Positions 870 to 42,868 of a stretch of DNA of 45,950 nt are shown here, piece by piece. This DNA is from Neolewinella sp. (lineage in GTDB: Bacteria; Bacteroidota; Bacteroidia; Chitinophagales; Saprospiraceae). The notes beneath the pieces were generated by a model. That model had not been told where the DNA came from, did not search any database, and worked only from the letters and a program-made list of their open reading frames with translations. Numbering within the stretch: the first letter of the stretch is position 1; every line of letters begins with the position of its first letter. Position numbers and translations under genes: made by a program. Location: the NCBI GenBank assembly GCA_047637095.1, contig JBLIGS010000001.1, positions 1 through 45,950 on the forward strand. The letters are read 5' to 3'.

Positions 870-2126
870 CTACCTCGCAGCAGTTTCCACCGCTTTCCAA
901 ACCCGCAGTACATTCCCAGAACACATCTTCTCGATGTCTCCTTCGGAGTAACCACGTTTTAGTAGCGTATAAATCAAGTTGGGGTAATCGGCAACGTCCT
1001 TCAGGCCAGTAGGCAACGAATCGCCTACACCGTCAAAATCAGAGCCGAAGCCAACGTGGTCAACACCTGCGAATTTGACAACACGGTCGATGTGGTTAAC
1101 GACCATTTCTACATCGGAGTAAAGTGTAGGAAATTCCTTTTTGAAGGCTTCTTCCAGTTCTTCGGTGCCCTCGTCGCCGTAGTTTTCAATGCCGGCATCG
1201 GCTAAGCGTTCAAAGAAAATTCCGCGGAGACTGTCCTGTCGGGTACGGAGCGTTCCATCTAAGAAAGTCGAACCGAAGTTGATCTGGATAACACCTCCTT
1301 CTTCGCCGAGGCGGGTAATCATCTCGTCGTTCATATTCCGCTCGAAGCCGGGGGTGTAATGGCGGACGCTGGAATGGCTGGCAATCATCGGTACATCGGT
1401 CATTTCTACTACCTGCCAGAAGGTGGAATCACTTACGTGGCTGATGTCAATCATGATGCCGACTTTGTTCATTTCCAGGACGACTTCGCGGCCGAAATCG
1501 CTCAGGCCGCCGTGGGTGCCGGTCGTGTCATAGCTGCTGTCGCAGATGAGGTTGTCCTTGGCGTGGGTCAGGGTGATGTAGCGAATACCCTTGTCGTGGT
1601 ATTCCTGAACGCGCTCGATCTTGTCTTCGATCGGAGAGCCATTCTCCATGCCCATTGGTAGGCTGATGACGCCATCTTTGAAGTTCTGCTCAAGCTGGGC
1701 AGTGCTGGTGGTGATCCTGAATTTGTCGGGGTGGGCATCGGCGATGCCGCTGACCATCGTGATCAGGCTATCGGCCAGTTTTGGGCTTTCACCGGGCTCT
1801 TTTTGGAGCGCGCTGGGGATGTAGATCGACATGAAGGGCGCGTCGAGGCCACCTTCTACGGAGCGTTTGTAATCGAAGTCGCCTTCGTCGGTTTCAATTG
1901 GAATGCCGAGGTATTCTTTGTCCAGTTTGAAATTCTTCACCTTGAGGCGGTAGGGCAAATCTACGTGGCCATCGGTGATGAGGAACTGATGAGCGAGGAC
2001 CTTGGAGTGGGCACGGAGCTCGTCGTCGGTCATGTCTTTTGTGGCCTTCACTGTTTCGGAGGCGGGGCCGCAGGTGCAAAGAAATATTGCCAGCAGAGTA
2101 AGGGAAAGTAAACGTTGTCCTTTCAT
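870..2126 (-). CDS. membrane dipeptidase (peptidase M19 family), secreted or lipoprotein
   Basis: DGHVD, GMENG, ITLTH, DISH, ASHS and GSDFDG motifs; N-terminal signal peptide. Confidence 0.92.
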   Translation of the reverse strand: MKGQRLLSLTLLAIFLCTCGPASETVKATKDMTDDELRAHSKVLAHQFLITDGHVDLPYRLKVKNFKLDKEYLGIPIETDEGDFDYKRSVEGGLDAPFMSIYIPSALQKEPGESPKLADSLITMVSGIADAHPDKFRITTSTAQLEQNFKDGVISLPMGMENGSPIEDKIERVQEYHDKGIRYITLTHAKDNLICDSSYDTTGTHGGLSDFGREVVLEMNKVGIMIDISHVSDSTFWQVVEMTDVPMIASHSSVRHYTPGFERNMNDEMITRLGEEGGVIQINFGSTFLDGTLRTRQDSLRGIFFERLADAGIENYGDEGTEELEEAFKKEFPTLYSDVEMVVNHIDRVVKFAGVDHVGFGSDFDGVGDSLPTGLKDVADYPNLIYTLLKRGYSEGDIEKMCSGNVLRVWKAVETAAR

Positions 2127-2261
2127 AGTTGTATAGTGTGTGAGACTTAATTACTCGAACAAAATTGTGCATTAATACTGTTCGAACTCTTAAAGGTACA
2201 ATCTCCGCCTACAAAATGGACACCCAACCAACTTTCCTCCCTAGGATACGATCTTTCTGAT

Positions 2262-2753
2262 ATGCGACTTATTTTACCCCTGCTCTTGGTAGCCTTTCTC
2301 TGCACCTGCGTCCGCGCCCAAAAGGTTCTCCTCTTCGAAAAACTCACGGCTTCCCAATCAGAGCGCCTCTACGAAGGCGAGATGCTAAAATTTCGGATGA
2401 AAGGTGATAAATTCTGGCAAGAAGGCCCCATTCGAGAGATGCGGCCCGACATCCAAGCCCTGGTCATCAACGACCGCTTCATCATGCTGAATGAAATCGA
2501 GTCCGTCCACCAAGGAGCCACTGCTGGTAAAGTAGTGGGGCTGTCTTTAATGGCCTTTGGCACCAGCTGGTCCTTCTGGTCCCTCGCCGGAAATTACACC
2601 GACGGCGACCCCATGACCCGCTACGAAAGCCGTGACCTCATGATCAGCCTCACCTCCATCGGTACTGGTTTTCTCATCCAGCAGCTGCTGGGCAAAAAAC
2701 GGTTCAAGCCGGGGAAGTATAAGCGGTTAAGGGTGGTGGATACCAGTTTTTAA
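2262..2753 (+). CDS. hypothetical exported/membrane protein
   Basis: Signal peptide ending CTCVRAQ, two C-terminal hydrophobic segments. Confidence 0.8.
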   Translation: MRLILPLLLVAFLCTCVRAQKVLLFEKLTASQSERLYEGEMLKFRMKGDKFWQEGPIREMRPDIQALVINDRFIMLNEIESVHQGATAGKVVGLSLMAFGTSWSFWSLAGNYTDGDPMTRYESRDLMISLTSIGTGFLIQQLLGKKRFKPGKYKRLRVVDTSF

Positions 2754-2757
2754 TTGA

Positions 2758-3894
2758 TTACCCATAAAGTGCTTTTGCCAATACCTCCGCAAACGCCCCT
2801 GGCGTACTCGCAAATGGCTTCATTCCCATCTCCGCCAACTGCGCAGCCACGTCCTTATCGTAGGCCGGCGCTCCTTCGTCGCTCAAAGCCAATACCGGTA
2901 AAAAAGTCAGTCCCGTCTGCTGTAGTCGGCGAATGCTTTTCAGCATACCGTTAACGGATCCTCCTTCGAAGAGGTCGCTCAGCAGAATCATGACAGTATC
3001 CCTAGGGTTGGTATTGAGCTGCTCTGCGTACCGCAGCGCCTTACCAATATCTGTTCCGCCTCCCAGCTGAATGGCGAAGAGTAATTCAAGCGGATCTGGG
3101 AGTTGGTCCGTCAAGTCCACCACACTGGTATCAAAGGCGACGACGTGGGTTTTTAGGGCAGGGATGCTGGCCAGGATGCAGGACAAAACGCCGGCGTAGA
3201 CGACGGACGCAGCCATGGAACCGGATTGGTCAATCAGCAGAATGACGTGCTTCAGCCCGGTCTTTGACCGGGACAAACCCCGCAAACTCACCGGCAACAC
3301 CGTCTTATACTCCGGCTGATAATGCTTCATGTTTACCCGGATGGTCTGGTCCCAGTCAATGTCCTGGTGCCGCGGCCTACGGTTGCGGTTGTGCTGCCTC
3401 TTCCTACCAGAAATAGCTTGTTCTATTGGCCGTTTTAATTCCTTTTCAATCTGCTTCACAACTTTCATCACTACCGCCCTGGCCGACTCCCGGCTCCGGT
3501 CAGGCAACAAATTCTTCAGCGTCAACAACGTTCCAATCAGGTGAACATCGGGTTCGATGGTTTCCAACAACTCCGGCTCCAGGAGCATTTGCTTCAAACC
3601 CAGCCTATCCAGCGCATCGCGCTGGAGCAACTGCACCGTATCCGTCGGGAAATACTTCCGAATATCCCCAAGCCACCGGTTAACGTTCGGGTTGGTTTTT
3701 CCCAACCCTCCCTTCCTGTCTTGGTCGGCATACAACGCCTCCAGCGTTGCGTCCATCCCGGCCAGCCGTTGGGGCAGGTCGATGGCGTTATCACCGCTTT
3801 GCTCCTCGGCCTGTTGGCCGAGAATGAGGCGCCATTTGCGGAGGTGGTCATCAGAGGTAGTCTTGTCGTCTTGTGGTTCGGTAGGCTGCCGCAT
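2758..3894 (-). CDS. VWA domain protein (CoxE/YehP-like)
   Basis: KWRLILG N-terminus, MIDAS DQSGSM, GGGTDI, LSDL. Confidence 0.88.
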   Translation of the reverse strand: MRQPTEPQDDKTTSDDHLRKWRLILGQQAEEQSGDNAIDLPQRLAGMDATLEALYADQDRKGGLGKTNPNVNRWLGDIRKYFPTDTVQLLQRDALDRLGLKQMLLEPELLETIEPDVHLIGTLLTLKNLLPDRSRESARAVVMKVVKQIEKELKRPIEQAISGRKRQHNRNRRPRHQDIDWDQTIRVNMKHYQPEYKTVLPVSLRGLSRSKTGLKHVILLIDQSGSMAASVVYAGVLSCILASIPALKTHVVAFDTSVVDLTDQLPDPLELLFAIQLGGGTDIGKALRYAEQLNTNPRDTVMILLSDLFEGGSVNGMLKSIRRLQQTGLTFLPVLALSDEGAPAYDKDVAAQLAEMGMKPFASTPGAFAEVLAKALYG

Positions 3895-4020
3895 TGGTAG
3901 TATAAGTAGTTTAAGAGTCTGGTAGGCTGCCGCAAAAGGCAGGTGTTGCTTGTTGACAGAAAACCCACCGGTTTATCGGTATTAGAGTCCTCTCTGATTA
4001 TAACGTGCGGTAGCCTAAAA

Positions 4021-4105
4021 GGCCGCAGGCCGTCTAAATGCAGCCGAAGGCTGCGTCTACAAGGTTGCGAAGCAACCGTCTAAAAGTGGCCTTAGGCCAC
4101 GTCCA
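4021..4105. repeat. array of four short hairpins with a 23-bp period
   Basis: Linker GTCTA/GTCCA at 4032, 4055, 4078 and 4101; hairpins GGCC-GCA-GGCC, GCAGCC-GAA-GGCTGC, GGTTGC-GAA-GCAACC, GTGGCC-TTA-GGCCAC. Confidence 0.85.
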
Positions 4106-4126
4106 GTAAAGAATCCTTAGGCTTTT

Positions 4127-5968
4127 TTACTCCGTTTCCATCCCTCTAATCCTTCGCTTACTCCCAACACTTTCTATCCGTTCGAGCAAGCCATCGGCTT
4201 CAACGATCTCCCGAAGGTGGTAGAAATTGAGGGCGAAAGAGACAGCCCAGATACAGAAAACGATGGCGAAGATGAAGTAGTAGACAATGCACTGGAGGAT
4301 GACGTTGGCATTATCAATGGCCGTTGGGTCGGCGTAGATGACCCAGTCGAGGAAAGAGAAAAGCAAGGTTCCTACCGTTGTCGTCAGCACGATGGTGGAA
4401 AGGAAGGCCATCAGGATGATGATGAAGAAATTGCTGTAGGTAGTGGCCAGGCTGGCGAAGATGTAGCTAAAAATCTGTTTCAAGCTTGCGAGGCCGGCGT
4501 ACCCTGCATAAGCAAAAGTCATTACCGTTGGAAGTAAAAAGATGACGAACAGACTGGCAATGACGCCGTTCCAGGCAAAGCCAAAGGCAATGACCAAAGA
4601 AGCAAGGAACAGGAACGCTTCAGAGCGCCAATTGGCCGGTAAAATTCCTATATCGGTGGCTCGCCAGAATAACTCGAAGGAAAGGCGAAGCATACTGTAA
4701 AAACCGCTGGCGACTAATAGCAGAAAGAAAAGCCCTCTGCTTCTGGAGAAACTGGTTGTCAGTTCGTGAACGTTGATGAAATCGCCGTAGAACTCACCGT
4801 CGAAGAAGTACCTCGCGCTGGAGGCAGAGCCGAAAAAGGTGAACGACAAGAGTGTATAAACCAGGGTGATTATGCCGATGCCGCCGAAGAACAAACCGAT
4901 GTTCCTCCGGAGGATATCGAAGGTAGCGGAGAGGTTTTCACCGGGGGTACGAATTTCTTTTAGCTTGACGGATGAACTCACCTGGCTGCTAGTGCGGATG
5001 GCGTCTTCTTCTTCCAGCGCTGGGCGCTGGCTTACCCGCCAGGGATAAATAATGTAGTACCAAATTATGAAGGCAAAACAGGTCGCAATGAAGGCGGCCC
5101 GGATGGCATCTGGTAGTTCTGTATGCCTAGTGATGTAGCCTTCGAGGAAACCGGCACAAAAAAGGAGTGGCACGATACCAAGCATGATTTTAAGACCGTC
5201 TCTGGCTGAAATTTTGAAGGCATCAAATCGGGATAATGTTCCAGGGAATATTAGTCCTCTTCCCATTGCTAAGCCAGCACCTCCGGCAATTACGATGCTG
5301 CTGATCTCTAGTGCACCGTGAATCCAGATGGTGAGGAAACTTTCTTGAAACAGACCTTGGTCATAGAAAAAGTACTGGAATACACCCACCATAATACCGT
5401 TCGAAATCAATACGAATAATGAGCCAACAGCAAAAAAAGCTCCTGAAATAAAAGTAAGGAAAGCAATCTTAGTGTTGTGTAATGTAATGCTCAATGACAT
5501 ATTTAACGCGGACCTTCCTTTGTAGACGGCCATGGGATCTCCATTTTCGATATTGGCCTTGGTCATTTCTACGTAGCCCTCACCTAAGATGACTTCGGCA
5601 AAACTCGGATCAATCTGATAGCTGATGATACCGATCAACATCGCAAGTACGAAGGTTCCGAGTGAGAGCAGCAGCGCGAAGCGCTGGTTGTGTACTACCC
5701 GTGGTAATTCATCCGTCCAGAAGGTAATGAACCGGCCAGCCTCTCCCCGCCGTCCGCGGTAGATCTGCAAAAAGGTCTTTTGCGCCAGACTGTTCAGGTA
5801 TACACGGACACTTCGGTTAGGATAAAACGTGCGGGAATATGAAAGGTCATCGGTCGTATGAATGTATAGCTCGTTAAGGAGCTTTGGGTCCTTGTCGTCG
5901 CGGTCCAGGGCGCGCTCATAGCGCGTCCATTTTTCCTTGTTCTTCTCGATGAATTCGGTCTCCCGCAT
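4127..5968 (-). CDS. stage II sporulation protein M (SpoIIM/DUF95) family membrane protein with C-terminal extension
   Basis: MRETEFI, DDLSYSRTFYP, NGIMVG, IHGALE, AGFLEGYIT motifs; many transmembrane segments. Confidence 0.88.
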   Translation of the reverse strand: MRETEFIEKNKEKWTRYERALDRDDKDPKLLNELYIHTTDDLSYSRTFYPNRSVRVYLNSLAQKTFLQIYRGRRGEAGRFITFWTDELPRVVHNQRFALLLSLGTFVLAMLIGIISYQIDPSFAEVILGEGYVEMTKANIENGDPMAVYKGRSALNMSLSITLHNTKIAFLTFISGAFFAVGSLFVLISNGIMVGVFQYFFYDQGLFQESFLTIWIHGALEISSIVIAGGAGLAMGRGLIFPGTLSRFDAFKISARDGLKIMLGIVPLLFCAGFLEGYITRHTELPDAIRAAFIATCFAFIIWYYIIYPWRVSQRPALEEEDAIRTSSQVSSSVKLKEIRTPGENLSATFDILRRNIGLFFGGIGIITLVYTLLSFTFFGSASSARYFFDGEFYGDFINVHELTTSFSRSRGLFFLLLVASGFYSMLRLSFELFWRATDIGILPANWRSEAFLFLASLVIAFGFAWNGVIASLFVIFLLPTVMTFAYAGYAGLASLKQIFSYIFASLATTYSNFFIIILMAFLSTIVLTTTVGTLLFSFLDWVIYADPTAIDNANVILQCIVYYFIFAIVFCIWAVSFALNFYHLREIVEADGLLERIESVGSKRRIRGMETE

Positions 5969-6057
5969 AGTCGTTCGGTAGGTTGGTAGTTAGGTAGACT
6001 ACCACTTCGTTTTAGGTATATGTTGGACTAAGGTAAGACTAATTTTTAGTTACAAGT

Positions 6058-6492: not shown

Positions 6493-6589
6493 AACTAAAT
6501 AATAATTTTTTCATAACCCGACTTTGGGGCATGATGTTAACGTCAGAATGATTTTTTTAGCTTGAGTGTCCTCGTTTTCTAACGTTCCT

Positions 6590-6657
6590 TGCACACATTC
6601 GACTTCGGACTCCACTGAGCGCAGCCGAACGTGCTCAGTGTGCGCCTGCGTCCGCGG
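6590..6657. repeat. REP-like unit (TTCG-C-CGCTCAG family) with a nested inverted copy, followed by the dispersed 19-bp motif
   Basis: Similar to 11466-11511; internal CACTGAGCGCAGCCGAACGT is an inverted copy. Confidence 0.6.
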
Positions 6658-6803
6658 TAAAAAAATAAGACGGGCACCAGCCAAGCAATCAGCTACCGCA
6701 AGTGGGTAATGTGATAAACCATGATCCGTGCAGCAGCCTACAAAGCTACTCTACTGCCTCCAACGTGCGGTAGCTACTCACGAACCTTCCAACTCAATGA
6801 CTC

Positions 6804-7927: not shown

Positions 7928-9664
7928 TTAAACCACTTTTTCCGTTTCTGTAATTAGTTCCCGGGCCGTTTTGTAAGTGTCGGCAAGGTCATCAGCTTTG
8001 TCCTGGCCAGCGTAAAGCGCCATTTCACAGCGTTGTAACAAGCTATCATAGCGCTGAATGAGGTTGGCGTCGGCACCAGCAGTACTTAGTTGAGTGCTGA
8101 TGTTCTTCCGGCTGAGCTCAGATGTAGGTAGGTGGAATTTATCTTTAAGGTAACCGAGCAAAGCACCTTCAATTTCATCGTAGAAAGCTTTGGGCTCTAT
8201 CTTGTCGAGGTGGACCTTAGCCGCTTTTAACCGTGCTGTGGCGGCACGTGCAGCACGCGCCCGTGCCATCTCCGCCGGGTCCCGGCCGTTAAGATGTTGT
8301 TGGTAACGTTGCCAACCTATGGCGCCACCGGCGGCGAAGAGTGGCAGTAAAAATAAGGCCCCAAACGGCCAGTTACTACTAGGGGCATTGCCGTGAAATT
8401 TGCCCCTAGGTAAGGTCGAAACTTCCCGGAGACTAAGCGTTTCCTCCACGACTTTCGTTGTATCTATTTCGTAGGTAGGGGCTCCGTCACCTCCGGTGAC
8501 GGTAACCTTGAAGTTGGCATCCGTGGCCGTTACGTATGCGGCACTGTCGGTATTGAAGTAAACAATTCCTGGTGCTAGGTCGTAGACCCCGGAACGTTTT
8601 GGGACGATTTTGTATTCCAGCACTTTGCGGCCGAGCATCCCCGTTGGACTGTCGAGAAATTCTTCCTGGAGAATCTCTGGATCATAAATGTCCCAGTCTT
8701 TTTCGTTGACCGGTGGAACACCTTCCAAACGCTGAATATCGCCTTCACCAGTAATGGTTATTTTGAAAGTAAGGGCATCATCGGTCGTCATATCTACTCG
8801 GTTGGCCTGGGCCTGTATCCGGTAATTGCCGACGGCGCCGGAAAAATTCTTGGGCCTTGGTTGGGGAAGTTCGTTGACTTGAATATAGAGGGTGTCGGTG
8901 GCCAAGGGAACCTGTTCGTTGCGGCGGCGCGCACCGGCACCAGTATCGTAATAAACGGTCGTGCCCATAATCAGGCGGTAGGGCGTGATCTTGATAATGC
9001 CGCTTTTTGTGGGGAAAAGAGCGAGACTGCCAAGCGTCCGCCGCTGGTACTCTTTACCGTTTTCAAGGACGGCCCGGGGCCGGCCGTCGTATTGCCGGCG
9101 AGGCTGGGCAAAGAAGCCGTCGAAGTCCGGCTCTTGCATCAAGTTGCGGGAGTTTTCCCGGGTGGTGGTGTAGAGGTTGAGGTCGAGAATTATTTGCTGA
9201 CCGACAAAGGCGGTTTCGGTAGAAATGTCGGCACGTAGAAAATTGGCAGGAGCTAGGGCGGTGGCTTCTGCGTCAACGGGCAGCACCTCAATGATTTTGG
9301 AATTGGTCCGGTAAGTTCTGCCGCTGGCGCGGATGCTGGCAGGGCCAATCGTCAGTTTCCCTTCTCGCTTTGGCTGCAGCAGCCAAGCACTAGATTCATA
9401 GCTGGTCAGCACCCCGTTAAAATTCCTGGTGCCAATGGAACGACTTGGCCCGTTCAGGATAACGAAATCTTTAAAATTGGGAAGCTTCAGTTGTTCTCCT
9501 TGAGCATTACGCAGGGTTACCTGGTAGCGCACGGTACTGTTGACTAGCATTTGAGATTTATCGACTTCAGCGACGAAGGCGATGTCCTTATGCTGCTGTG
9601 CTAACAGTTCTTGGGCGCGGCCGCAGGTGCAAAAAAGAAGTATTAAAGCAAGGTTTTTCCACAT
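7928..9664 (-). CDS. BatD family protein
   Basis: Signal peptide ending CTCGRAQ, FSGAVG motif, C-terminal TM segment and CEMALYA; start taken at the ATG of MWKNL. Confidence 0.85.
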   Translation of the reverse strand: MWKNLALILLFCTCGRAQELLAQQHKDIAFVAEVDKSQMLVNSTVRYQVTLRNAQGEQLKLPNFKDFVILNGPSRSIGTRNFNGVLTSYESSAWLLQPKREGKLTIGPASIRASGRTYRTNSKIIEVLPVDAEATALAPANFLRADISTETAFVGQQIILDLNLYTTTRENSRNLMQEPDFDGFFAQPRRQYDGRPRAVLENGKEYQRRTLGSLALFPTKSGIIKITPYRLIMGTTVYYDTGAGARRRNEQVPLATDTLYIQVNELPQPRPKNFSGAVGNYRIQAQANRVDMTTDDALTFKITITGEGDIQRLEGVPPVNEKDWDIYDPEILQEEFLDSPTGMLGRKVLEYKIVPKRSGVYDLAPGIVYFNTDSAAYVTATDANFKVTVTGGDGAPTYEIDTTKVVEETLSLREVSTLPRGKFHGNAPSSNWPFGALFLLPLFAAGGAIGWQRYQQHLNGRDPAEMARARAARAATARLKAAKVHLDKIEPKAFYDEIEGALLGYLKDKFHLPTSELSRKNISTQLSTAGADANLIQRYDSLLQRCEMALYAGQDKADDLADTYKTARELITETEKVV

Positions 9665-11389: not shown

Positions 11390-11511
11390 TTGTTGGGCTT
11401 GAGGTCGGCTTGTAAAAGGATGGATGTAATTGTTGGTGCAGGGGACCTTGCTCGTCAACATCCCCTGCACACATTCGGCTACGCTCAGGTGTGCGCTGCC
11501 TGCGTCCGCGG

Positions 11512-12834
11512 CTAATCACTTCGCAGGGCCTTAATCGGGTCAAGCTGCGCCGCCCGCTGGGCGGGGAACAGTCCGAAAACAAGCCCAATGACCGAGGCTA
11601 CGCCAAAAGAAAGGACAACGGACCAAAGAGAAACCTCGGTCGGGATATCATAATTGATGGCAATGAACTTAGCTGCTCCAACTCCCAATAAAACGCCAGT
11701 AATTCCACCAATAAGACTGATGAAAACAGCCTCCAATAAGAACTGTTGAACGATGTCTTGCTGCGTAGCTCCAAGGCTACGACGGGTACCAATCTCCTTG
11801 GTCCGTTCCAGCACGGAGGCCAGCATAATATTCATAATGCCGATGCCGCCTACGAGCAATGAAATGCCGGCAATAAAAGCCAGCACTTTATTGAAAGTAT
11901 CTTGGGTTTCCTGCTGTGCTTCCAGCAGCTTTTCCGGAACGGTCATCTCGTAGTCTATGATGGTCTGGTGGCGGCGTTTCAGGAGCCGGGCAACAATGTT
12001 ACTCGTTGCAAGTAACTCGTCTGACTCTTTTACTCGGATGACCATTCTATCTAACTGGTGATAATTTTCAGGAGCCCCCCCGTTGCCATTATTATTACCA
12101 ATGTCGCGTGCATGGGCGTAGCTGCGATCTTTGAACCGGAGCAGGGCGGTCTGGAGCGGAATGTAGATGTCTTGGTTGTAATCCCGAATGCCAAGGTCTT
12201 CCAACTGGCTTTCTTTAGCAATTCTCTCCTTCATAATCCCGATGACCCGTAACCAGGTCTGGCCACATTTGATGCGCTGACCAATGGGGCTCCCGTCATT
12301 GAAATATTTGGCTTCAATGTCTTTGCCAATGATGCAGACAGGATCTCCTTTTTCGAGGTGACGGCTGTGGAAAAAAGTTCCTTTTTCCAAGTCAAGGTTG
12401 TTGAGTTCGAAGAAGGCATTGGTAACACCAATAGCTCGGCTTTTACCAATCTTTCCCTCCCGGATAACAGTGGAAGGAAGGACGATTTCTGGACTGATTG
12501 CTTCTACTCCAGGTAAAATTTTATTTATGGCCCGAACATCGCCCATGTTTAATCCCGGGCTCCAAGGGAGGGTGTTCTTTTCTTGCCCGGAGGACTGTGC
12601 ATCATCACCGTCATTACCGTTAGCTACTTTTTGGAGGCTTTGGATGACGATGTTGTTGGCGCCAATCAGGCGCATTTGTGCAAGTATGGTCTCTCTTGCG
12701 CCCGTTCCGATGGCCAACATCGCAATCACTGCCCCGACACCAAAGATGATGCCCAGCGCAGTGAGAAAAGCCCGCAAACGGTTGGCGGCTACGCCCTCGA
12801 GGGCGAGCTGGAAATTGAATAGTAATTTCTGCAT
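11512..12834 (-). CDS. MacB-like ABC transporter permease (no fused ATPase)
   Basis: LTALGIIFGVGAVI, GGIGIMNIMLASVLERTKEIG, PAQRAAQLDPIKALR. Confidence 0.93.
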   Translation of the reverse strand: MQKLLFNFQLALEGVAANRLRAFLTALGIIFGVGAVIAMLAIGTGARETILAQMRLIGANNIVIQSLQKVANGNDGDDAQSSGQEKNTLPWSPGLNMGDVRAINKILPGVEAISPEIVLPSTVIREGKIGKSRAIGVTNAFFELNNLDLEKGTFFHSRHLEKGDPVCIIGKDIEAKYFNDGSPIGQRIKCGQTWLRVIGIMKERIAKESQLEDLGIRDYNQDIYIPLQTALLRFKDRSYAHARDIGNNNGNGGAPENYHQLDRMVIRVKESDELLATSNIVARLLKRRHQTIIDYEMTVPEKLLEAQQETQDTFNKVLAFIAGISLLVGGIGIMNIMLASVLERTKEIGTRRSLGATQQDIVQQFLLEAVFISLIGGITGVLLGVGAAKFIAINYDIPTEVSLWSVVLSFGVASVIGLVFGLFPAQRAAQLDPIKALRSD

Positions 12835-16222: not shown

Positions 16223-16433
16223 GGAATAATTTTAGGCCGGGCGCGCAGGTACAATGTATGGTTGAATGGAACCTAGCAAAGCCCTTCAAACAATAGGTAA
16301 TTGCCACAACCGTCATCAATCCTTCAAATCCCTAGTCCCCGATAGGGACTACGCAATGGAGCAGCCATCGGGCATGTCTCTCGAAAGGCACGTCAGATTG
16401 GAAAAAAATACAACCCTACCCCGCCTCCGACGT

Positions 16434-16532
16434 TTGCAACAACTGCAACAACTGCAACAACTGCAACAACTGTTACAACTGCAACAACTGCAACAACTGC
16501 AACAACTGCAACAACTGTTACAACTGTTACAA
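16434..16532. repeat. 9-bp tandem repeat, 11 units (CTGCAACAA/CTGTTACAA)
   Basis: Read directly from the sequence; the last unit overlaps the dacB stop codon. Confidence 0.95.
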
Positions 16533-17906
16533 ATTCTCATGACACCACCCCAACGTCTTCTCCATCTCCTCGTAATACGCTCGGCTACTACCAACGTAGT
16601 TGTTGTGCATAAAGCTAAAGGCCAGCCATTTTCCCCGCTTGGTTAACAGCATGCCGCTTAGGCAAGCTACACCGCTTAGGGAGCCAGTCTTGGCCCAGAG
16701 GTAGGTCTTTTCTTCGTTATTATAACGATTTTTGAGGGTGCCGGATTCGCCGCCGGCGGGGAGGAGGGAAAGTAGTCTATCCCTGCCAACTTCCTGGTCA
16801 AGGGCTAGGACGATGCGCGTCATCTGGCGGGGCGAAATGAGGTTGTAGCGGCTAAGGCCGCTGCCATCGACCCAGCGGATACCTTCAACACCCAAGCTTG
16901 GAAAAAGGGTATCGCGGGCATAGTCAATGACCATTTCGGTGGAAGGTAAACCATAGCGTTTGGCCGCTGCCTGTAGCAGCAACTGTTCGGCTAGGTAATT
17001 GTCGCTTTCCTGCAGGAGTTTACGGAAAACGGTGTCTGGTAAAGAAGCCTCCAGAACGTTGAGTTGGCTGGCTTCGGGGTAAGGAGCGTAGCCAGTAGAG
17101 ATTTGTATTTGCGGCAGGGCGATGGCCAATTCATTGGTTAGGAATTCCGGAGACAGGTGCAAGGGGCGCTCCAGGGGGAAGCGGAGTGGTTCGTAGAAGG
17201 ATGGCCCGACGGTGAAGTCGTTGCCAAACTCGGAGCGACGAATTCTTACCTCCTGGCCGTCGGGCTGGCGCAGCGCGCCAACGACCGAAGGCGGGCTTCC
17301 CAACAGGCTTTGCCTACCCAGGCTGTCGACCGGGCTCAAGTCCATAAACAACCTGTTGCCATAGAGTGGAAAAGCGGATCGCTCGTAGACGTAGCTGTCG
17401 TTATAATCGTCCCAGCTCCAGCCAGCGCCGTAGCGTGAGACTGCTCCAGGGCCGACGGGGAAGTTGATCGTGATCGGCTTAGTCTGCCTGGCCAGCCAGG
17501 GGTACAGTTCGTCGTAGGCACCAAAGTCGGGGTGTAGCGCCAGTGGGTAACCGCTGCCCCACAACTCAAGATGATCGGCGAATTCCTGGTAGAAGACGCC
17601 GGGCGCGCGGTGGCCTAGCAAGCGGTTGGCTAGGTAGAAAGTTAGCAACTTGATGTTGCTGGCCGGAACGAATTTACGATCGGAGTTGAAGCCGTAGAGG
17701 TGAGACTGGTAGTCCATGTCGTACAGAACGAAACCGGTGTGGGCTTGCTCGAAGACGGGGTTGAATTCGACCAGCTGTTGCAGCTGGCGAGTGGCCTTTG
17801 CACCCAAAGGGGGTTGTCCTCGCACCTGCGTCCCCGCCCCAAAGAAGCACAGCGTCAGCAAGAATAATGAACGGAGATAGAACGGAGGTATGTGTTGGAC
17901 GGTCAT
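16527..17906 (-). CDS. dacB: D-alanyl-D-alanine carboxypeptidase/endopeptidase (peptidase S13)
   Basis: PASNIK (SxxK), SDN, DGSGLSR and AKTG motifs. Confidence 0.9.
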   Translation of the reverse strand: MTVQHIPPFYLRSLFLLTLCFFGAGTQVRGQPPLGAKATRQLQQLVEFNPVFEQAHTGFVLYDMDYQSHLYGFNSDRKFVPASNIKLLTFYLANRLLGHRAPGVFYQEFADHLELWGSGYPLALHPDFGAYDELYPWLARQTKPITINFPVGPGAVSRYGAGWSWDDYNDSYVYERSAFPLYGNRLFMDLSPVDSLGRQSLLGSPPSVVGALRQPDGQEVRIRRSEFGNDFTVGPSFYEPLRFPLERPLHLSPEFLTNELAIALPQIQISTGYAPYPEASQLNVLEASLPDTVFRKLLQESDNYLAEQLLLQAAAKRYGLPSTEMVIDYARDTLFPSLGVEGIRWVDGSGLSRYNLISPRQMTRIVLALDQEVGRDRLLSLLPAGGESGTLKNRYNNEEKTYLWAKTGSLSGVACLSGMLLTKRGKWLAFSFMHNNYVGSSRAYYEEMEKTLGWCHENL

Positions 17907-22071: not shown

Positions 22072-22334
22072 GGGATAGGAGTTAGAAACTAGAGCGTTAA
22101 TAAGCGGGCTTCTAGCTCTCTATGTTCTATTTTTGGCCGCGGCCGCAGGTGCAAAGAACGTTGTATTGCAAGGACCCTCCGCCGGGCAAATAGGCAAGTA
22201 TGTGCCGCTCCGACGTGGCGTAGCCTATCTGGCCTATCTCGTGCGATAGCTACTCCCCTACTCCCTAATTCAGCGACTCACTAACTCAGGCTGCAACGAA
22301 ACTTCTACTACCTTACAGCGGTTAACTCTCTTAC

Positions 22335-23546: not shown

Positions 23547-23777
23547 TTTTACAGGCGGAAGGTAGGAGACGAGGGTAAAGGGACCAAACATTGGAGACGG
23601 TATGGATCATTGTGTCCAATAACCTTCTGTGCACCTGCGCCCGCGCCCTGAATCAGCATTGATGCTCTGCCAAGTCGATCTTGCCACCTCCAGCATAGGG
23701 TAACCTGCCAACCTTCAATAACTGCCAGACTACCGAAGTCGGTAGCCATTCACCAACCTACTAATCCCACCAACCTA

Positions 23778-26030: not shown

Positions 26031-27263
26031 TTAAAAGATGATAACAGCGGCAACGATAAGAGTGCTCAGTATCAGCCCACCTAGGAAAATGGTGTAGGCC
26101 ATGCGAAGTAGACTGTGCTTGCGCTCGAGGCTGCTGCCCATGCCGTGGAGCTCGTTGATGAGGGTTCCATAAAGGGCATTGGGGTCGCGAAGGCGGGCTT
26201 CTGTGCGGGCGGAGAACTCCTCGCGGGAAAGCTTGCTGAAATAACCGAAGAAGGCCAGGTTTTCGCCGTCGCTGCTGCGCTTGGTGGGGCGGGCCGCTAG
26301 GGCCGCGTAGATAAGGCTGGCAAGGCCGCAGACGGTGAACAGGGCAACGGGAAGAAGAATCAATGGTCGGGTTTCTGCCCAATTACGGTAACTGGTGAAG
26401 GTCGCCAGGGCGCCGATGATGAGGGCGTTGACGCTGATCATGATGGCGGCCTTTTGGTCGGCCATCGAGAGTAGATTGATATGGTTGCGGAAGACTGTCC
26501 GGAAATAAGTCTGGGTGGCTTGGCGGGTGGGCCCATCTTCGAGGTTCGATAACTGGGTCAGCATTGGGTCCGGGGCATCCGGGGCTGGGGTTAAGGGCGC
26601 GGCCGCAGGTGCAGGGATAGGTTGTTTGGCAGCGCGGTCAGCCAATTTGTCAACCAATCGCTGGAGGTCTAGCAGGACGGCGGAGTGGGTGTGTTGGTAC
26701 TGCCGGCGTAGCTCGCTGTTCCGAAAGCGAGCCTCCCGTAGTTCCTCGAGGTAACGGCTCAGAGCAGCCTGCCGGGAAGGAGGCGTTATTCCTTGGTTGG
26801 TACCATACCGGATTTCCAACCAGGTGAGTTCTGCACCTTCTGTGCCGGACAATAACCGTTGTGCTAACCGGGCATCGTGCAGAACGTCGGCAATGTCGGC
26901 CGTCAATGGGCCATTGCCACCTGGAAGAGCGGATTTCAACGCAAGGTTAAGGTTGAGGTAGCCAGGCCCTGTCCATTGTCGGAACTCCTGGCTTACTTCG
27001 TTCCAGTCTCTTTTTTCTGTGTCTACACTCCAGTACCTGCAGGCGTGGAGTAGGGCGGTTGCCCGGGCCAAGGGGACGAGGTCGGGGCCGGCCCCGGGCC
27101 GGCGTAGCGCAATCTCGCGGGCATGGCCCGCCAGGGCCAAGGCCCAGCTGTCGTTATGCAGCACTCGGCCACTCGTCTGTCGCTCGTAGGCCATGAGCAT
27201 AAAGCGCTCGGCTTGGTCGGCGAGGTCAGCAAGGTGGGGTGTTGTGAAGGGGGAAGTTTGCAT
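26031..27263 (-). CDS. Pycsar-effector-family (DUF5706) membrane protein with a degenerate N-terminal HD domain
   Basis: TYFRTVFRNHINLLSMADQKAAIMISVN, NLAFFG and three TM segments; HD position reads LLHAC. Confidence 0.8.
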   Translation of the reverse strand: MQTSPFTTPHLADLADQAERFMLMAYERQTSGRVLHNDSWALALAGHAREIALRRPGAGPDLVPLARATALLHACRYWSVDTEKRDWNEVSQEFRQWTGPGYLNLNLALKSALPGGNGPLTADIADVLHDARLAQRLLSGTEGAELTWLEIRYGTNQGITPPSRQAALSRYLEELREARFRNSELRRQYQHTHSAVLLDLQRLVDKLADRAAKQPIPAPAAAPLTPAPDAPDPMLTQLSNLEDGPTRQATQTYFRTVFRNHINLLSMADQKAAIMISVNALIIGALATFTSYRNWAETRPLILLPVALFTVCGLASLIYAALAARPTKRSSDGENLAFFGYFSKLSREEFSARTEARLRDPNALYGTLINELHGMGSSLERKHSLLRMAYTIFLGGLILSTLIVAAVIIF

Positions 27264-32207: not shown

Positions 32208-32692
32208 AGGGCGGGAACTGTATTTTGTGTGGACGTCTTGGGCGGGCTAAGATAAGGACATGGCCTTGACTTGGTGCTACTTGTTTATAGCATCATTTAA
32301 CCCGGTGTAAGGTGCAGTTGAATACCCATGTTTTTTCTCAGCCCCTCAAATTTAATATTTCTCCATTTTTTTTGAAAACATCGTGAACACCGATTTTGGT
32401 CCTTAAACATAGAATTTGGCACAAAAATCACGTTTTTGATCATATATAGTCAATGTGGGCGAGGGCGCGGGTGCAAGGAGAGGTTGAGGTAGCAATTTTT
32501 TCAACAAAAACCAACGGTTGACTGTATTTCGCCAATATTGAAAGAAAAAGCACTTTTTTGATAAAAAGATCAATAAGCAGCGCACCTAGGGGTAAACATC
32601 TGGTTTGAGGAGATAGAAAGCACGCCTAAAGAGGCGATCTGAAGCATACCAGTCATACAAATTTCTCTCTATCACTTAGACATTTACTTATT

Positions 32693-34948: not shown

Positions 34949-35177
34949 AAAGGAACTCATATCTCCAAGTCCAGACTTTAATTCAAGTAAGGCCCCATTC
35001 CCACCCCATCCACGTAATGTAAATTGTTACGCCCATCACAACTTAAAACTATTTGTTATTTAATTTTTATTTTCTATCTTCGCCTTCCGGCCTACGGCCC
35101 GGGCTGTTTTGGAAACCTTGCTCCCGTAAACCTTCCATTGCACCTGCGTCCGCGCCCAGAAAAATTAGCAGCAGTTA

Positions 35178-37808: not shown

Positions 37809-37873
37809 TGGTAGGCTACTAAAGCCGTAACTTTGCCCCGTTCACCAGGTCATCACTCATTAAGCCCCGTCAC

Positions 37874-38041: not shown

Positions 38042-38144
38042 GAAGCAGCTTCTATTACCCTTAAGTGACCGAGCCAATTACAAAGTAACGGACTTGTGAC
38101 AAGCCCACAATGGCTTGGTCGTTCCTTTGCAAAAACGATTTAAG

Positions 38145-38834: not shown

Positions 38835-38916
38835 GTAACCTTATTCCTAGAAGGAGGGTGTTTTTCCGAATTTTCATTGCGATTCCTTAGGAGTCGAGGG
38901 TGCAAGCAGCTGAATA

Positions 38917-38944
38917 GTAGCGACAAGGCATGTCTTGTCGCTAC
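38917..38944. repeat. GTAG-type REP palindrome
   Basis: GTAGCGACAAGGCATGTCTTGTCGCTAC. Confidence 0.8.
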
Positions 38945-39001
38945 CGTTTGCGCCTGCAAGGGCGGTGATTCCTTAGGAATCATTAACGGAACATTCTATT
39001 C

Positions 39002-39661
39002 CTAGAAGCTGTCAATTTCTCTTTGGATGTTTATTCTTGCGGAAGCCTCCCATTTGTCTCTGGACTCCTGCAAATGATAGATAAGCGGTTGCTCAATGAA
39101 ATGCTGTAAGGCCTTTTTTCTGCCAGGCTTGTAGAGGCAATTTGGATAGATTTTAAATTCTCTCCGGACTGCTTTGGCGTACGCGTCGTAACCGTCGGCT
39201 GGACGGGCGAGGACTGCGAGGTCAAGGTCTATCAATAGTGCGTCAGAATGATCACTGCCCTCTAACAATTGATGGCTTTTGGTGGCCATGATGAGCCGGT
39301 GACAGTAAGCACCGTCTTCTTCGGATGCTCCGATGGCGAGAAGGTCTTTGACCAACAAGTCGGCGCTTTTGGCTTCATTGTCCCTGCGGCTGGCGGTGTA
39401 GACGATGTCGTGGTAGATAAGGGCTAAGCCCCATAGTGCTTCTTTTTTAGACAGAAGGGCCGCAGGCGCGGTTGCTGAGCGGGGCTGAAGTACAGGGGGA
39501 GTGTTTGTTAACTGAGCAGTGTAGTGTCCCAGCATCTCGCGCAAATGCGCGAGGTTATGATAAGCCCTCCTGCTGTAGGCACTTTCAATTTGCGTCCATT
39601 TTGAACCGGTGCCAGGATTAATAACCCGCAAACAATGGTGGTAAAAGTTAACGGGTTCCAT
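39002..39661 (-). CDS. HD-superfamily metal-dependent phosphohydrolase (COG4339-like)
   Basis: RAYHNLAH, YHDIVY, NEAKSA, DLDLAVL. Confidence 0.88.
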   Translation of the reverse strand: MEPVNFYHHCLRVINPGTGSKWTQIESAYSRRAYHNLAHLREMLGHYTAQLTNTPPVLQPRSATAPAALLSKKEALWGLALIYHDIVYTASRRDNEAKSADLLVKDLLAIGASEEDGAYCHRLIMATKSHQLLEGSDHSDALLIDLDLAVLARPADGYDAYAKAVRREFKIYPNCLYKPGRKKALQHFIEQPLIYHLQESRDKWEASARINIQREIDSF

Positions 39662-39773
39662 AGCCGACTAAATTGGATTTTGATTGTGGGTTAATCCCAT
39701 GATGTGACGGTAAAGGTTAAATTTAGAGACAGCCTTAAAAAGGACTAACTTTGCGGCTCCAAAACGAAACGTC

Positions 39774-40628
39774 ATGACCGAAAGTCTCCGCCAACGCATC
39801 CTGCAGTTCATCACCGAAGCCCTCGCCGAGGACGTCGGACCAGGTGATTACACTAGTGAAGCTACGATCCCTGCCGCTAACCGGGACACTGCCCGTTTGC
39901 TGGTCAAAGACGTTGGTGTCCTCGCCGGCGTCGAAGTCGCCAAGATGATCTTCGAAGCCGTTGACCCAACGGCCGAATTCGAACAGAAGATGAACGATGG
40001 TGATCTTATGCACGTTGGAGACGAAGCTTTCTTCATTACCTGTAACTCCCGTGCACTCCTCCGCGCCGAGCGCCTCGTGCTTAACACCATGCAGCGTATG
40101 AGTGGCATCGCCACCCTGTCCAACCGCTACGCCTTCGAAGTAGAAGACCTCCCCGTTACCGTTCTAGATACACGGAAGACAACGCCTAATCTCCGTTTTT
40201 TGGAAAAATGGGCCGTCCGGCTTGGCGGCTGTAGTAATTACCGCGATGGCCTCTACGACCGGGTAATGATCAAGGACAACCACATCGATGCTGCCGGTAC
40301 AATCACCGCTGCCATCGAAGGTGTTCAGGCCTTTTTTAAGGAAAATAACATGGTACTTCCCATCACCATCGAGGTACGTAACCTCGTCGAACTCATGGAG
40401 GTTCTCAAGATTGGCCAGGTTGATAGGATTATGCTCGACAACTTTGAAGTCCCCATCATGAAGGAAGCCGTCGCGCATATTGACGGTCGCTTTGAAGTGG
40501 AAGCCAGTGGCGGCATTACCCTGGAAACCATCCGGAGAATTGCGCAAACTGGCGTAAACTTCATCTCCGTTGGCGCCCTTACCCACTCCGCTACCAGCCT
40601 TGACTTGAGCCTGAAAGTGATGAAGTAA
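39774..40628 (+). CDS. nadC: nicotinate-nucleotide pyrophosphorylase (quinolinate phosphoribosyltransferase)
   Basis: DTRKTTP, MIKDNH, IMLDN, EASGG, SVGALTHS. Confidence 0.97.
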   Translation: MTESLRQRILQFITEALAEDVGPGDYTSEATIPAANRDTARLLVKDVGVLAGVEVAKMIFEAVDPTAEFEQKMNDGDLMHVGDEAFFITCNSRALLRAERLVLNTMQRMSGIATLSNRYAFEVEDLPVTVLDTRKTTPNLRFLEKWAVRLGGCSNYRDGLYDRVMIKDNHIDAAGTITAAIEGVQAFFKENNMVLPITIEVRNLVELMEVLKIGQVDRIMLDNFEVPIMKEAVAHIDGRFEVEASGGITLETIRRIAQTGVNFISVGALTHSATSLDLSLKVMK

Positions 40629-40631
40629 AAA

Positions 40632-40690
40632 GCCCTTCGGCCTTTTAGGCGCGGCCTTCGGCCAGCTCGTAGACGGCCTTCGGCCTTGTA
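40632..40690 (-). repeat. three GGCC-GAA-GGCC-type hairpins, same family as 4021-4105
   Basis: G(G/C)CCTTCGGCC at 40632, 40653 and 40675 with TAG(A/G)C linkers. Confidence 0.75.
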
Positions 40691-40694
40691 GCGA

Positions 40695-40863
40695 CTAGTA
40701 CAGTGTAATCTAAGTTTCATCGCCTAATTCGCGGTGCTTTTCACCGCCTAACTGCGTTGGAGAAATCCTCACTTAGGGACGGCTAGGCTCCGGTTTTTCC
40801 GCCTTGTTAGTCGGCAAAACCCACCAGCGAATTTGTCGACAAACTTAAATTACACTGTACTAG
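40695..40863. mobile_element. MITE-like element (169 bp) with terminal inverted repeats and CTAG ends
   Basis: CTAGTACAGTGTAATCTAAGTTT ... AAACTTAAATTACACTGTACTAG (one mismatch); related copy at 41761-41924. Confidence 0.8.
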
Positions 40864-40987
40864 ACAAAGTATAACTGACGAAATTCTTGTTCTTTTCGCA
40901 ATCCTTAGCAAGGGACCAGCCAGACACTAAGCGGATGGCGTAGTCCCTTGCTAAGGTTCCCAATCCTAATGACGGGAACCCGCGACG

Positions 40988-41030
40988 AAAAAAACCAGCC
41001 CCTTGCTCTCGTTAGAGCAAAGTGCTGGTT
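40988..41030 (-). terminator. intrinsic terminator downstream of the ssb pair
   Basis: Minus strand AACCAGCACTTTGCTCT-AACG-AGAGCAAGGGGCTGG-T7. Confidence 0.75.
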
Positions 41031-41176
41031 CGGCCGCCTCCCGCTTTATCCAAAAGACGTGTCTTTTACAGAAATCGAGTGAGTCCCCATACTGCTTTCC
41101 AGAGGCGGCGGTGCAAAACCCATCGTCACCACCAGGTTAAAATTGTTGTGGTTAAAATGGAGCCATTCGGAAAAGA

Positions 41177-41671
41177 CTAGAATGGCAGATCGTCGTCGGC
41201 TTTGGGCATGTCCGATTCGTCGGCCATGGCGACAGCCATGGTTTCCTTTGCCAACCGTTTTTCAGTGCGGGCGTCGATGGGCTTACCAAGTGGTTCGCCA
41301 ACCATGGACGGTGTAGCATGGCTGTTCTCTTTTCGCGGCCCATCCATAAACTGGAAGGACTCAACGATGATTTCCGCCTTGGTACGTTTTTGCTCGTATT
41401 TGTCCAGCCAATTATTGTAGCGAAGAGTGCCGACGATGGACACCTTACTCCCACGGTCAAGGTATTGGTTAAGGACTTCCGCCGCCTTACCGAAGGCTTT
41501 TACATTATGCCATTCGGTTCGCTCTACTTTATTACCATTGCGGTCTTTATAGGCGTCGTTGGTGGCAAGGCGGAATTCTGTGAGCATCTGTCCACTGGGC
41601 ATGGTCTTGGACATGGGCGGGCCGCCCAAGTAGCCGATCAGGTTGATGAAGTTGCTGTTAGTCAAAGACAT
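41177..41671 (-). CDS. ssb: single-stranded DNA-binding protein with acidic tip
   Basis: NFINLIGYLG, FRLATN, TEWHNVKAFGK, C-terminal DDDLPF; start at MSLTN. Confidence 0.92.
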   Translation of the reverse strand: MSLTNSNFINLIGYLGGPPMSKTMPSGQMLTEFRLATNDAYKDRNGNKVERTEWHNVKAFGKAAEVLNQYLDRGSKVSIVGTLRYNNWLDKYEQKRTKAEIIVESFQFMDGPRKENSHATPSMVGEPLGKPIDARTEKRLAKETMAVAMADESDMPKADDDLPF

Positions 41672-41760
41672 AATATTGGAGTTGAAAGGGAGAAGGAACT
41701 TGCCCTCGGCACCCGATTTCGGATGCCGAGTAAGCAAACTGTTTTGGGATCAGTAAAGGA

Positions 41761-41924
41761 CTAGTGCTGTGTCAGGCCAATTTTTACACCTCATCTACGG
41801 TGTCTTTTTCCGGCTGACTTCGTTGGCAAAACACTACCGTAGCTAAGTGAGGATTTTTCCAACGCGGTTAGGCAGTAAAAGACACCGCGAATTAGGCGAT
41901 GAAACTTAGTTTACAGTGTACTAG
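41761..41924. mobile_element. second MITE-like element (164 bp), inverted relative to 40695-40863
   Basis: Bounded by CTAG at both ends; right ~80 bp are a near reverse complement of 40695-40776; left part diverged. Confidence 0.7.
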
Positions 41925-42373
41925 GCGATGGTAGCCATCTGCTTTTTAGTAGGCTTCTTTGCTCGGCGGGTGATGGTCTTCTTGTCTGTTGCCTCGTTTG
42001 TCGAATCGTTCGTTGTATCGCCTTCTTGCTTGGGTTCGTACTTGCCATTACTGAGGAAGGTGAACTCCTCGGTAATCACTTCAGCGGTAATGCGGTTCTG
42101 CTCGAACTGGTCAACCCACTTGCGGTACTTCATGGAGCCGACGATGGAAACCTGAGAGCCACGTTGTAGGTACTGGTCGAAGAGCTCGGCCACCTTGCCG
42201 TAGGCCTTGACCTTATGCCATTCTGTTTTAGTCTGCCGCTTACCGTCCGCATCGCGGTAGTACTCGTTGGTGGCCAGGGAGAATTCGGTGGCCGTTGTAC
42301 CGCTCTTGAGGGTTACTGTTTTAGGATCAGCGCCAAGGTTGCCGGTAAGGTGGATGTGGTTACGTACGTTCAT
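41921..42373 (-). CDS. ssb: single-stranded DNA-binding protein paralog with a basic tail
   Basis: NHIHLTGNLGADP, FSLATN, TEWHKVKAYGK; ends KKPTKKQMATIA; start at MNVRN. Confidence 0.9.
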   Translation of the reverse strand: MNVRNHIHLTGNLGADPKTVTLKSGTTATEFSLATNEYYRDADGKRQTKTEWHKVKAYGKVAELFDQYLQRGSQVSIVGSMKYRKWVDQFEQNRITAEVITEEFTFLSNGKYEPKQEGDTTNDSTNEATDKKTITRRAKKPTKKQMATIA

Positions 42374-42525
42374 CTTATGGTGAATTTTATTAGCCGCAGT
42401 GGAGGGTTGTAGTGAATGCGACCAGGTTATGTAGTGTGTCATCTCCTGAGTAAGTAGCGGTGAAGCAACTCTTTCATTCGGTGACGATGCAAAGGTGGGG
42501 TGGCCTCCAAACGCTAGTCGTCTTT

Positions 42526-42561
42526 TATACGTATACTTACGTTTATATGCGTATATAAACG
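42526..42561. promoter_or_regulatory. candidate operator upstream of the ssb pair
   Basis: TATACGTATA (42526-42535) and CGTTTATAT-GCGT-ATATAAACG (42540-42561) palindromes. Confidence 0.45.
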
Positions 42562-42868
42562 CTTATTAGGTGAGTTTTAAACAATAAGTATCTGATTGTC
42601 AGTAATTTGTGTGGGTGCTGTTTTTTTACCTTTTTTTGCTCATATTCCCCTCCTTTGCACCTGCGTCCGCGCCGTATTCCAACAACAGCACACCTAATAC
42701 CTAACCCTTTGTACCTAAATCTCTTGTAATGGGGCGCGGACGCGAGTGCAAGGCAAGGCTTCAACGGCAAGGATATTCCTTCGCCATGTAAGCCTGCGAC
42801 ATCCCACATCGCTTCTCCGCATAATCAATCGCTACCCATAGACGTACTTTAAGCTAAACCCCAGCCTT

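Follow-up and report, generated by a model that had tools for sequence, protein, structure and literature searches.

The stretch of DNA analysed here, called the window, comprises 45,950 nt of Neolewinella sp. (assembly GCA_047637095.1, contig JBLIGS010000001.1, positions 1 to 45,950 of the forward strand). Its genes include a dacB-like gene, hflX, relA/spoT, a gyrase/topoisomerase IV subunit A gene (parC-type) and two ssb genes, and within and between its genes lie copies of a polar, non-palindromic and over-represented DNA motif, the subject of this report. The genome of the window (G000; other G numbers denote other genomes, and L numbers denote stretches or contigs) amounts to 2.47 Mb and is 59% complete. 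A 22-column matrix of 31.7 bits was trained on this genome, and sites scoring at least 15 bits were treated as strong. The window contained 11 matches at no more than three mismatches, compared with 0.06 expected. The first-pass annotation had listed about 15 copies; 12 of the 15 scored at least 15 bits, the remaining three (6641, 39457 and 11499) were weak or partial, and a minus-strand copy placed at 2061 was borne out with its start at 2060. The copies are listed below, with the score or other evidence in brackets.

2060..2081, minus strand: strong copy in the signal-peptide codons (LCTCGPA) of the open reading frame (ORF) at 870-2126; divergent partner of the copy at 2298 (30.4 bits)
2298..2319, plus strand: strong copy in the signal-peptide codons (LCTCVRAQ) of the ORF at 2262-2753 (37.3 bits)
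6638..6659, plus strand: weak intergenic copy with the invariant core kept and a hairpin like those of repetitive extragenic palindromic (REP) elements before it; fills the plus-strand comb (13.8 bits; spacing)
9613..9634, minus strand: strong copy in signal-peptide codons (FCTCGRAQ) (33.7 bits)
11492..11513, plus strand: copy of the right part only (CCTGCGTCCGCGG from 11499), the left part being replaced; fills the plus-strand comb (spacing)
16235..16256, minus strand: degenerate copy just beyond an alanine dehydrogenase-like gene (17.6 bits)
17818..17839, plus strand: strong copy at the 5' end of the dacB-like gene, in antisense orientation (GAGTQVR) (31.2 bits)
22135..22156, minus strand: strong intergenic copy upstream of hflX and directed away from it (35.7 bits)
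23627..23648, plus strand: strong intergenic copy downstream of hflX (30.2 bits)
26595..26616, minus strand: strong copy within a gene, encoding PAPAAAP in a linker (36.3 bits; alignment)
32457..32478, minus strand: intergenic copy upstream of relA/spoT (28.2 bits)
35116..35122, plus strand: upstream CCTTGCT box of the parC-leader copy, an example of the first half-site (sequence; distribution of box positions)
35136..35157, plus strand: strong copy in the leader of the parC-type gene (37.2 bits)
39458..39479, minus strand: weak in-gene copy; fills the minus-strand comb (11.2 bits; spacing)
42653..42674, plus strand: strong copy, left half of a rare convergent pair upstream of the two ssb genes (33.0 bits)
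42732..42753, minus strand: copy forming the right half of that pair (27.4 bits)

With the weak and partial copies included, the window shows two regular combs, with spacings of 4.3-11.5 kb on the plus strand (coefficient of variation 0.35) and 3.3-7.6 kb on the minus strand (0.24), and these three copies are therefore probably real. Across G000, only 3 of 69 right-part-only copies lay within 2 kb of a same-strand strong copy, compared with 42% of all positions. REP-like hairpins stand directly before both degenerate plus-strand copies (window 6610-6660 and 11470-11515), in place of the left part of the motif.

Genome-wide, the motif was confirmed as real. G000 contained 591 sites of at least 15 bits, compared with 2 in a simulated fifth-order Markov sequence of equal length, so that the count against a Markov background proposed by the first-pass annotation came out far above that background. 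In the score distribution the sites were separated from the background by a clear gap, and the most frequent 8- to 16-mers of the genome were words of the motif. A literature search, with incomplete coverage of subscription papers, found no description of the Neolewinella element.

The spacing of the sites was strand specific. Same-strand pairs closer than 1 kb numbered 3 in G000, compared with 66-74 expected under two null models, and those closer than 2 kb numbered 15, compared with 126-132 expected. Opposite-strand pairs closer than 1 kb showed no overall depletion (80 in total, 68-74 expected), with an excess of divergent pairs (58, 34-37 expected) and a deficit of convergent ones (22, 34-37 expected). 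Spacings below 2 kb were likewise rare in G002 (3 of 107, 25.6 expected) and G023 (2 of 94, 19.9 expected), and the divergent excess recurred in G002 (21, 7.4 expected). Because a site of this length should persist only where it is useful, the exclusion of same-strand neighbours implies that each site covers a few kb in a single direction, the opposite strand being covered by sites of its own. The strands were used equally, with 56 plus and 53 minus sites in a 400-kb stretch of constant GC skew and mixed strands along Mb-scale contigs; neither a leading-strand bias of the Chi type nor a replichore orientation was found, which answers the strand-skew check suggested by the first-pass annotation and excludes roles on the lagging strand or like that of the FtsK-orienting polar sequences (KOPS) or AIMS. 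An apparent all-plus run in G041 and G013 was considered as a sign of replichore polarity and rejected, narrower patterns having given mixed strands. Equal strand use speaks against a link to the replication fork or to mRNA; it fits end processing and recombination, which expose either strand equally.

The motif is confined to Neolewinella. Among the species genomes scanned, 116 loci were listed; of the first 80, all but one belonged to Neolewinella, Lewinella, Saprospiraceae/Lewinellaceae or unclassified Bacteroidota, the exception being from Pseudonocardia. A flexible pattern gave 120-890 forward matches in 36 of the 47 genus genomes and near-control counts in the other 11 (forward counts were used, as reverse counts double-count variable gaps), and the richer genomes carried about one copy per 7-10 kb per strand. 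A core pattern had at most 11 matches in each of 297 other genomes of the family, and another pattern at most 36 outside the genus among the matches listed for an order-wide draw of 151. The lineage-specific, chromosome-wide distribution proposed earlier was thus supported.

Seven of the 11 pattern-poor genomes were searched for related words over 60-280 kb each (G020, G021, G051 and G052 were left out), and five of the seven carried one at a similar density and in strand balance. By sequence, congeners thus use at least four other dialects, given here with their same-strand pairs closer than 2 kb.

G001: CCTGCGCTCCGYCGC; 0 pairs, 5.6 expected
G048: TGCTCCYGC followed by a hairpin; 0 pairs, 2.9 expected
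G017: TGCTACTTTG..AGYC; 0 pairs, 4.0 expected
G009 and G050: ACCTGCGGAAGT; 1 pair each, 1.9 and 2.5 expected

GCACC and GCTCC starts were mixed in G004, and no same-strand depletion was seen in a small sample of G057 (2 pairs, 2.3 expected). No clear dialect was found in G249 or G153, and G056 and G058 yielded only REP-like repeats. In these two genomes (L421-L424 and L187-L196, respectively), one repeat consists of a long variable hairpin ending in CCTTCCAGGCACCTCACGC, with 1 of 32 copies in long ORFs, and a second, of about 50 nt, ends in TTTAGACACGCTCT and often forms back-to-back pairs. In G209, from another genus of the family (L207-L213), a GTTTT(R)GC-GNAA-GC hairpin word occurred 35 times in 140 kb, 24 of them in long ORFs; it lacked same-strand spacing (6 pairs, 7.4 expected) and is possibly a distant relative of the Neolewinella element.

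The motif was also found in phages. A strict pattern matched 31 IMG/VR stretches, among them complete phage genomes with terminal repeats (G361, 44.6 kb, 10 matches; G362, 38.7 kb, 8 matches), in which both strands were used and the density equalled that of the host; one provirus had 10 matches. In the phage contig L308, copies lay within scaffold-like and tail-like genes. L308, L367, L369, L376 and L381 are related contigs of 54-55% GC with the motif in structural genes, and this phage family presumably infects Neolewinella.

The 19-bp motif first described proved to be part of a longer element. On the C-rich strand it reads CYYTGCTYYT box, spacer, often AAC, then CYYTGCACCY, GCG, a 4-nt loop, CG(C/G)C and an A-rich tail, giving a polar, bipartite element of about 45 nt. 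A second box of the CYYTGCT type, which repeats the start of the core, stood 15-19 nt upstream in 388 of the 591 copies, the spacer length being spread almost evenly over these five values. The only invariant positions were CC, GCG and CG, and the 12 nt before the core were nearly devoid of G. The upstream box is common to G002 and G048 and weak or absent in G023, G017, G001 and G050. Loops measured 4-6 nt, with insertions symmetric around CCG; the 6-nt class in G002, G023 and G001 had gained a base both before and after the central CCG. For G048, the base that follows YTGCTCCYGC predicted the one preceding the closing G(C/T). There, 685 sites were listed (11 in the control), and a hand tally of the first 100 gave A..T closure in 44 of 45, C..G in 7 of 11 and T..A in 3 of 4, while 38 of 40 G-starts appeared as a G..A-closed loop, and loop length varied. 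The G048 loops GCA, GTGA, CTTG and TTTA belong to classes that are unusually stable in DNA hairpins. These features suggest that the element likely folds into a small single-stranded hairpin, and recognition as a single strand is suggested because the spacers are flexible and the stem covaries.

With regard to gene location, 324 of the 591 sites were intergenic (20% of the DNA) and 267 lay in called genes, 145 sense and 122 antisense, with five of the six frames well used; the constraint therefore acts on nucleic acid and not on protein, in support of what the first-pass annotation had proposed. Codon alignments of G000 sites with G023 and G002 (our own count) yielded 11 gap-free alignments in which a site present in one genome only had been made by substitutions, some of which changed amino acids, as in hflX and in genes that we take to be ClpB-like and IscS-like. 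A further 8 sites occupied the same codons in the aligned genomes, and over a dozen lay in or beside indel-rich loops; the suggested check of orthologous positions thus returned both shared and genome-specific sites. Judged from these alignments, copies enter genes, conserved ones included, largely by substitution, altering conserved residues. In the parC leader the two clades carried the site in opposite orientations, and several genomes had none. Sites thus turn over while density holds.

A relic or active mobile repeat, of the REP type or of the type of miniature inverted-repeat transposable elements (MITEs), might account for the in-gene copies in indel-rich loops, for the two weak window copies that follow REP-like hairpins and for the G056/G058 repeat, which ends in a similar word. 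Outside about -22 to +27 the flanks carried no information; the copies are therefore not part of a larger element and do not sit inside insertion sequences or MITEs, which would have refuted the first-pass proposal; no shared ends or duplications were seen beyond about 45 nt. The 11 gap-free sites were made by substitution, insertion leaves the per-strand regularity unexplained, and the G056/G058 repeat behaves differently, being almost absent from long ORFs. This explanation is already largely refuted and most improbable. As in REP elements with their RAYT transposases and in Ssn motifs (NTS), a hairpin would be read on single-stranded DNA (ssDNA) and chromosomal copies are many; unlike those extragenic and clustered motifs, the Neolewinella element lies within genes in 45% of cases, arose largely through substitution and is evenly spaced.

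The silent-site composition changed sign at the sites. At four-fold sites of G000, the motif strand was C-rich for about 1 kb 3' of the site and G-rich for at least 1.5 kb 5' of it. On the 3' side (40-250 nt), delta ln G/C was -0.46 ± 0.06 in sense and -0.85 ± 0.06 in antisense genes; on the 5' side, it was +0.41 and +0.21, respectively, and the flip faded over about 1.5 kb. Contig bootstraps confirmed the flip for isolated, in-gene and intergenic sites. Adjusted for gene position and codon family, the coding-strand logit of G versus C beside the site was -0.40 on the 3' side and +0.34 on the 5' side for sense genes, and +0.78 and -0.25, respectively, for antisense genes; relocated control sites gave an effect of about 0. 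A gene-position artefact was therefore rejected as the source, since the effect remained after control. G002 repeated the flip in both orientations. Coding strands of G000 were strongly C>G at four-fold sites (0.395 versus 0.221), and the main compositional change was that the strand leaving the site had gained C.

C-rich, G-poor tracts resemble Rho loading sites. The tract 3' of the motif would therefore suit a transcription-level signal, that is, an RNA hairpin or a cryptic start that would limit or begin transcription on either strand, for example by Rho-linked termination on untranslated RNA, and would be silent under ribosomes. The C>G sign of transcribed spacers, a mild co-orientation with downstream genes (57%, versus 47% upstream), the presence of Rho in G004 and the loops of G009 and G050, which were all GNAA (29 of 29, in part a consequence of the search pattern), point in the same direction. 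Against such a signal, copies were about equally numerous in almost purely sense (97) and antisense (85) neighbourhoods, the parC-leader copy stands in either orientation depending on the clade, and the window gave no Rfam match at the gathering score. TA occupied the slot of the conserved parC promoter element in only 23 of 589 copies, on which ground a housekeeping promoter was rejected. Overall, a role in transcription appears rather unlikely. The promoter-like pair itself, a TTG-containing box about 19 nt before TAYCTTCG (window ~35040-35090, L118-L146), is conserved upstream of parC genus-wide and distinct from the motif.

Hairpins are part of single-strand initiation (ssi) signals, and Okazaki fragments are shorter than 7-10 kb. 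A single-strand priming or helicase-loading site, like ssi or a primosome assembly site, would serve gap filling or restart on either strand. The linear box and hairpin on the pyrimidine-rich strand, read strand-specifically, are like the described ssi/sso signals in outline (PMC5714925); phages carry the motif, and divergent pairs were favoured in two genomes. Such signals occur once or twice per plasmid or phage, unlike the roughly 1,300 copies per chromosome on both strands here. The absence of a lagging-strand bias, the identical skew flip of both orientations within one replichore and the 7-10 kb spacing, longer than the Okazaki length, also argue against priming, and the opposite skew sign would be predicted if C deaminates on an exposed template. 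We consider this explanation quite unlikely.

The first-pass annotation had offered a DNA uptake signal or a chromosome-wide binding tag. In the former, modelled on the DNA uptake sequences (DUS) and uptake signal sequences (USS), a surface or periplasmic receptor would prefer motif DNA, and biased uptake with recombination would write the motif into the genome. The likeness to DUS and USS held in several respects: the motif is lineage specific, present in hundreds to more than 1,000 copies in genes and spacers, free of replichore bias, evenly spaced as cited for USS (PMC1939737) and written at a cost in amino acids, and its dialects within the genus recall the lineage-specific dialects described for Neisseriaceae DUS (PMC3630211). 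Among the competence genes that had been proposed for a check, comEC was found in 44 and dprA in 43 of the 47 genus genomes, neither being found in the 59%-complete G000. Being present throughout the genus, and matching also in 10-11 of 14 control genomes, they do not discriminate. No competence data for the genus were found in the literature.

Other properties separate the element from such tags. Its redundancy is strand specific, whereas uptake in H. influenzae was reported to be independent of USS orientation (PMC1939737); it has a hairpin with a variable loop and a local skew flip; and close inverted pairs are few (29 opposite-strand neighbours within 200 bp among the 591 sites, mostly divergent), unlike the close inverted DUS pairs that form DUES terminators (10.1101/2025.10.24.684340), a comparison based on pair counts. 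More tentatively, DUS are reported to be absent from recently acquired genes (PMC2397512), whereas windows of atypical composition, a mere proxy for acquired DNA, were undepleted in G002 (2.9 versus 2.7 per 10 kb) and G023 (2.2 versus 2.5) and weakly depleted in G001, and phages carry the motif. An uptake signal as the lead interpretation was therefore not upheld, and a classical surface tag is unlikely; a binding tag comes closer, with the addition of polarity and of a likely reading as ssDNA.

A strand-specific nick site, either a repair signal or an origin of transfer or packaging used by a domesticated HUH nuclease or terminase, with resynthesis 3' from the nick, would agree with the C gain on the strand leaving the site, an outcome expected of nick translation. 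Hairpins in ssDNA are read by HUH and Ssn nucleases (PMC11893778), and Y1 transposase-family matches occurred in 46 of the 47 genomes. Where present, these matches numbered from 1 to 7 and differed in size; the search found none in G047, despite its 724 forward motif matches, and no cluster of the motif adjoined the two in G000. Ssn motifs are grouped around their own gene and do not tile the genome. A nick site thus has a low probability. A text-pattern search of G000 proteins gave no HUH, GIY-YIG or relaxase candidate and also missed the two Y1 matches, so it provides no evidence.

Taken together, these results tentatively favour a Chi-like polar signal that acts inside the cell, likely as a single-stranded hairpin, and would be read by an end-processing or recombination machine as 'own' DNA. 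Known Chi sites are 5-8 nt long, unstructured and leading-strand biased. The element is like Chi in being polar and non-palindromic and in occurring about once per 4 kb when both strands are counted. Chi is read as a single strand (according to a reference listed in PMC1939737) and stops end processing to yield 3' overhangs (PMC8860600). In the proposed mechanism, unwinding of a strand would begin at a break, at the end of incoming DNA or at a phage end; a protein would bind the two CYYTGC half-sites and the hairpin and, once bound, would halt degradation or initiate strand exchange, acting unidirectionally over a few kb. A second nearby copy on the same strand would add nothing and decay, and a separate series would be needed on the other strand. 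Phages would acquire the tag either as resident prophages or through mimicry, and the dialects would drift with the reader. The strands that run 5' to 3' into the site are C-poor, which is the sign that exposed 3' tails would be expected to leave.

With regard to a reader, a UvrD helicase-PD-(D/E)XK nuclease family match was present in all 47 genus genomes. A fusion of 1059 aa was confirmed in G004, where it lies, within the stretch L402:9521-19960, near rho and comEC and near genes that we take to be serS and frr, and in many genomes of one clade a PD-(D/E)XK nuclease and comEC lie within about 11 kb of each other.

Several observations weigh against the Chi-like interpretation. Unlike the short Chi words, the element is bipartite, about 45 nt long, with a hairpin and 31.7 bits, and it lacks the leading-strand bias; hard same-strand exclusion and dialects within one genus further set it apart. 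The UvrD-PD-(D/E)XK family also matched 11 of the 14 control genomes and is thus hardly informative by its presence, and none of five genomes tested for RecC yielded it. No reader was found among the candidates (comEC, dprA, Y1 transposases, UvrD-PD-(D/E)XK and ssb paralogues), which occur across the genus and did not track the motif. For the hairpin, many G-starts of G048 could instead pair with the GCTC arm, no fold was predicted for the G009/G050 dialect, and folding energies do not settle which strand is read, slightly favouring the opposite one. No compensatory stem swaps were seen in G000, G002 or G023, so that the hairpin of the window dialect rests on loop-length variation and homology to G048. 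The skew flip was weak or absent in G023, G001, G057, G004 and G048, and G017 and G009/G050, in small samples, showed the opposite sign on the 3' side. Where co-directional genes are separated by short spacers, these were also C>G on the transcribed strand (-0.195), so that the skew may have a transcription-linked cause. The divergent excess was absent in G023 (7, 5.7 expected), and two of five phage records checked, all selected by motif, had a single match.

On balance, we would provisionally rank a Chi-like signal ahead of an uptake tag, a transcription signal, a priming site, a nick site and a mobile repeat. With somewhat greater reserve, the element might represent a new class, a per-strand ssDNA hairpin code with a dedicated protein reader that would act as a distinction of own from foreign DNA or a licence for recombination, with mimicry by phages, species dialects that would have diverged under this pressure and a mutational sawtooth left in the genome.

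Some further repeats and genes were recorded. The tandem ssb genes of the window (Pfam SSB; 41177-41671 and 41921-42373, minus strand) also occur as a pair in close relatives, and genus genomes have 1-6 matches; a link of the motif to these genes was rejected, as no upstream copy was conserved across 16 loci. An intergenic tandem array of a 9-nt unit (GCAACAACT) occupies window 16435-16530, and G000 as a whole contains 43 runs of this unit and 37 runs of the 7-nt unit CAACCCG, mostly outside called genes. In G002 (L167-L186) and G023 (L147-L166), identical words, about 60 and about 23 in number, respectively, form clusters on one strand that resemble CRISPR arrays.

Chromosome-wide self tags are known mainly as the uptake sequences of two proteobacterial families and as short Chi words. 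Here, a genus of Bacteroidota with cultured type strains shows a different logic, with per-strand tiling, a likely hairpin, dialects and phage copies. The element offers a bait for pull-down, and its dialects form a natural series for finding the reader. It also provides a test of whether tags are evenly spaced because of uptake or because of a role inside the cell, which PMC1939737 left undecided for USS. The motif may govern the survival and recombination of foreign DNA in these bacteria.

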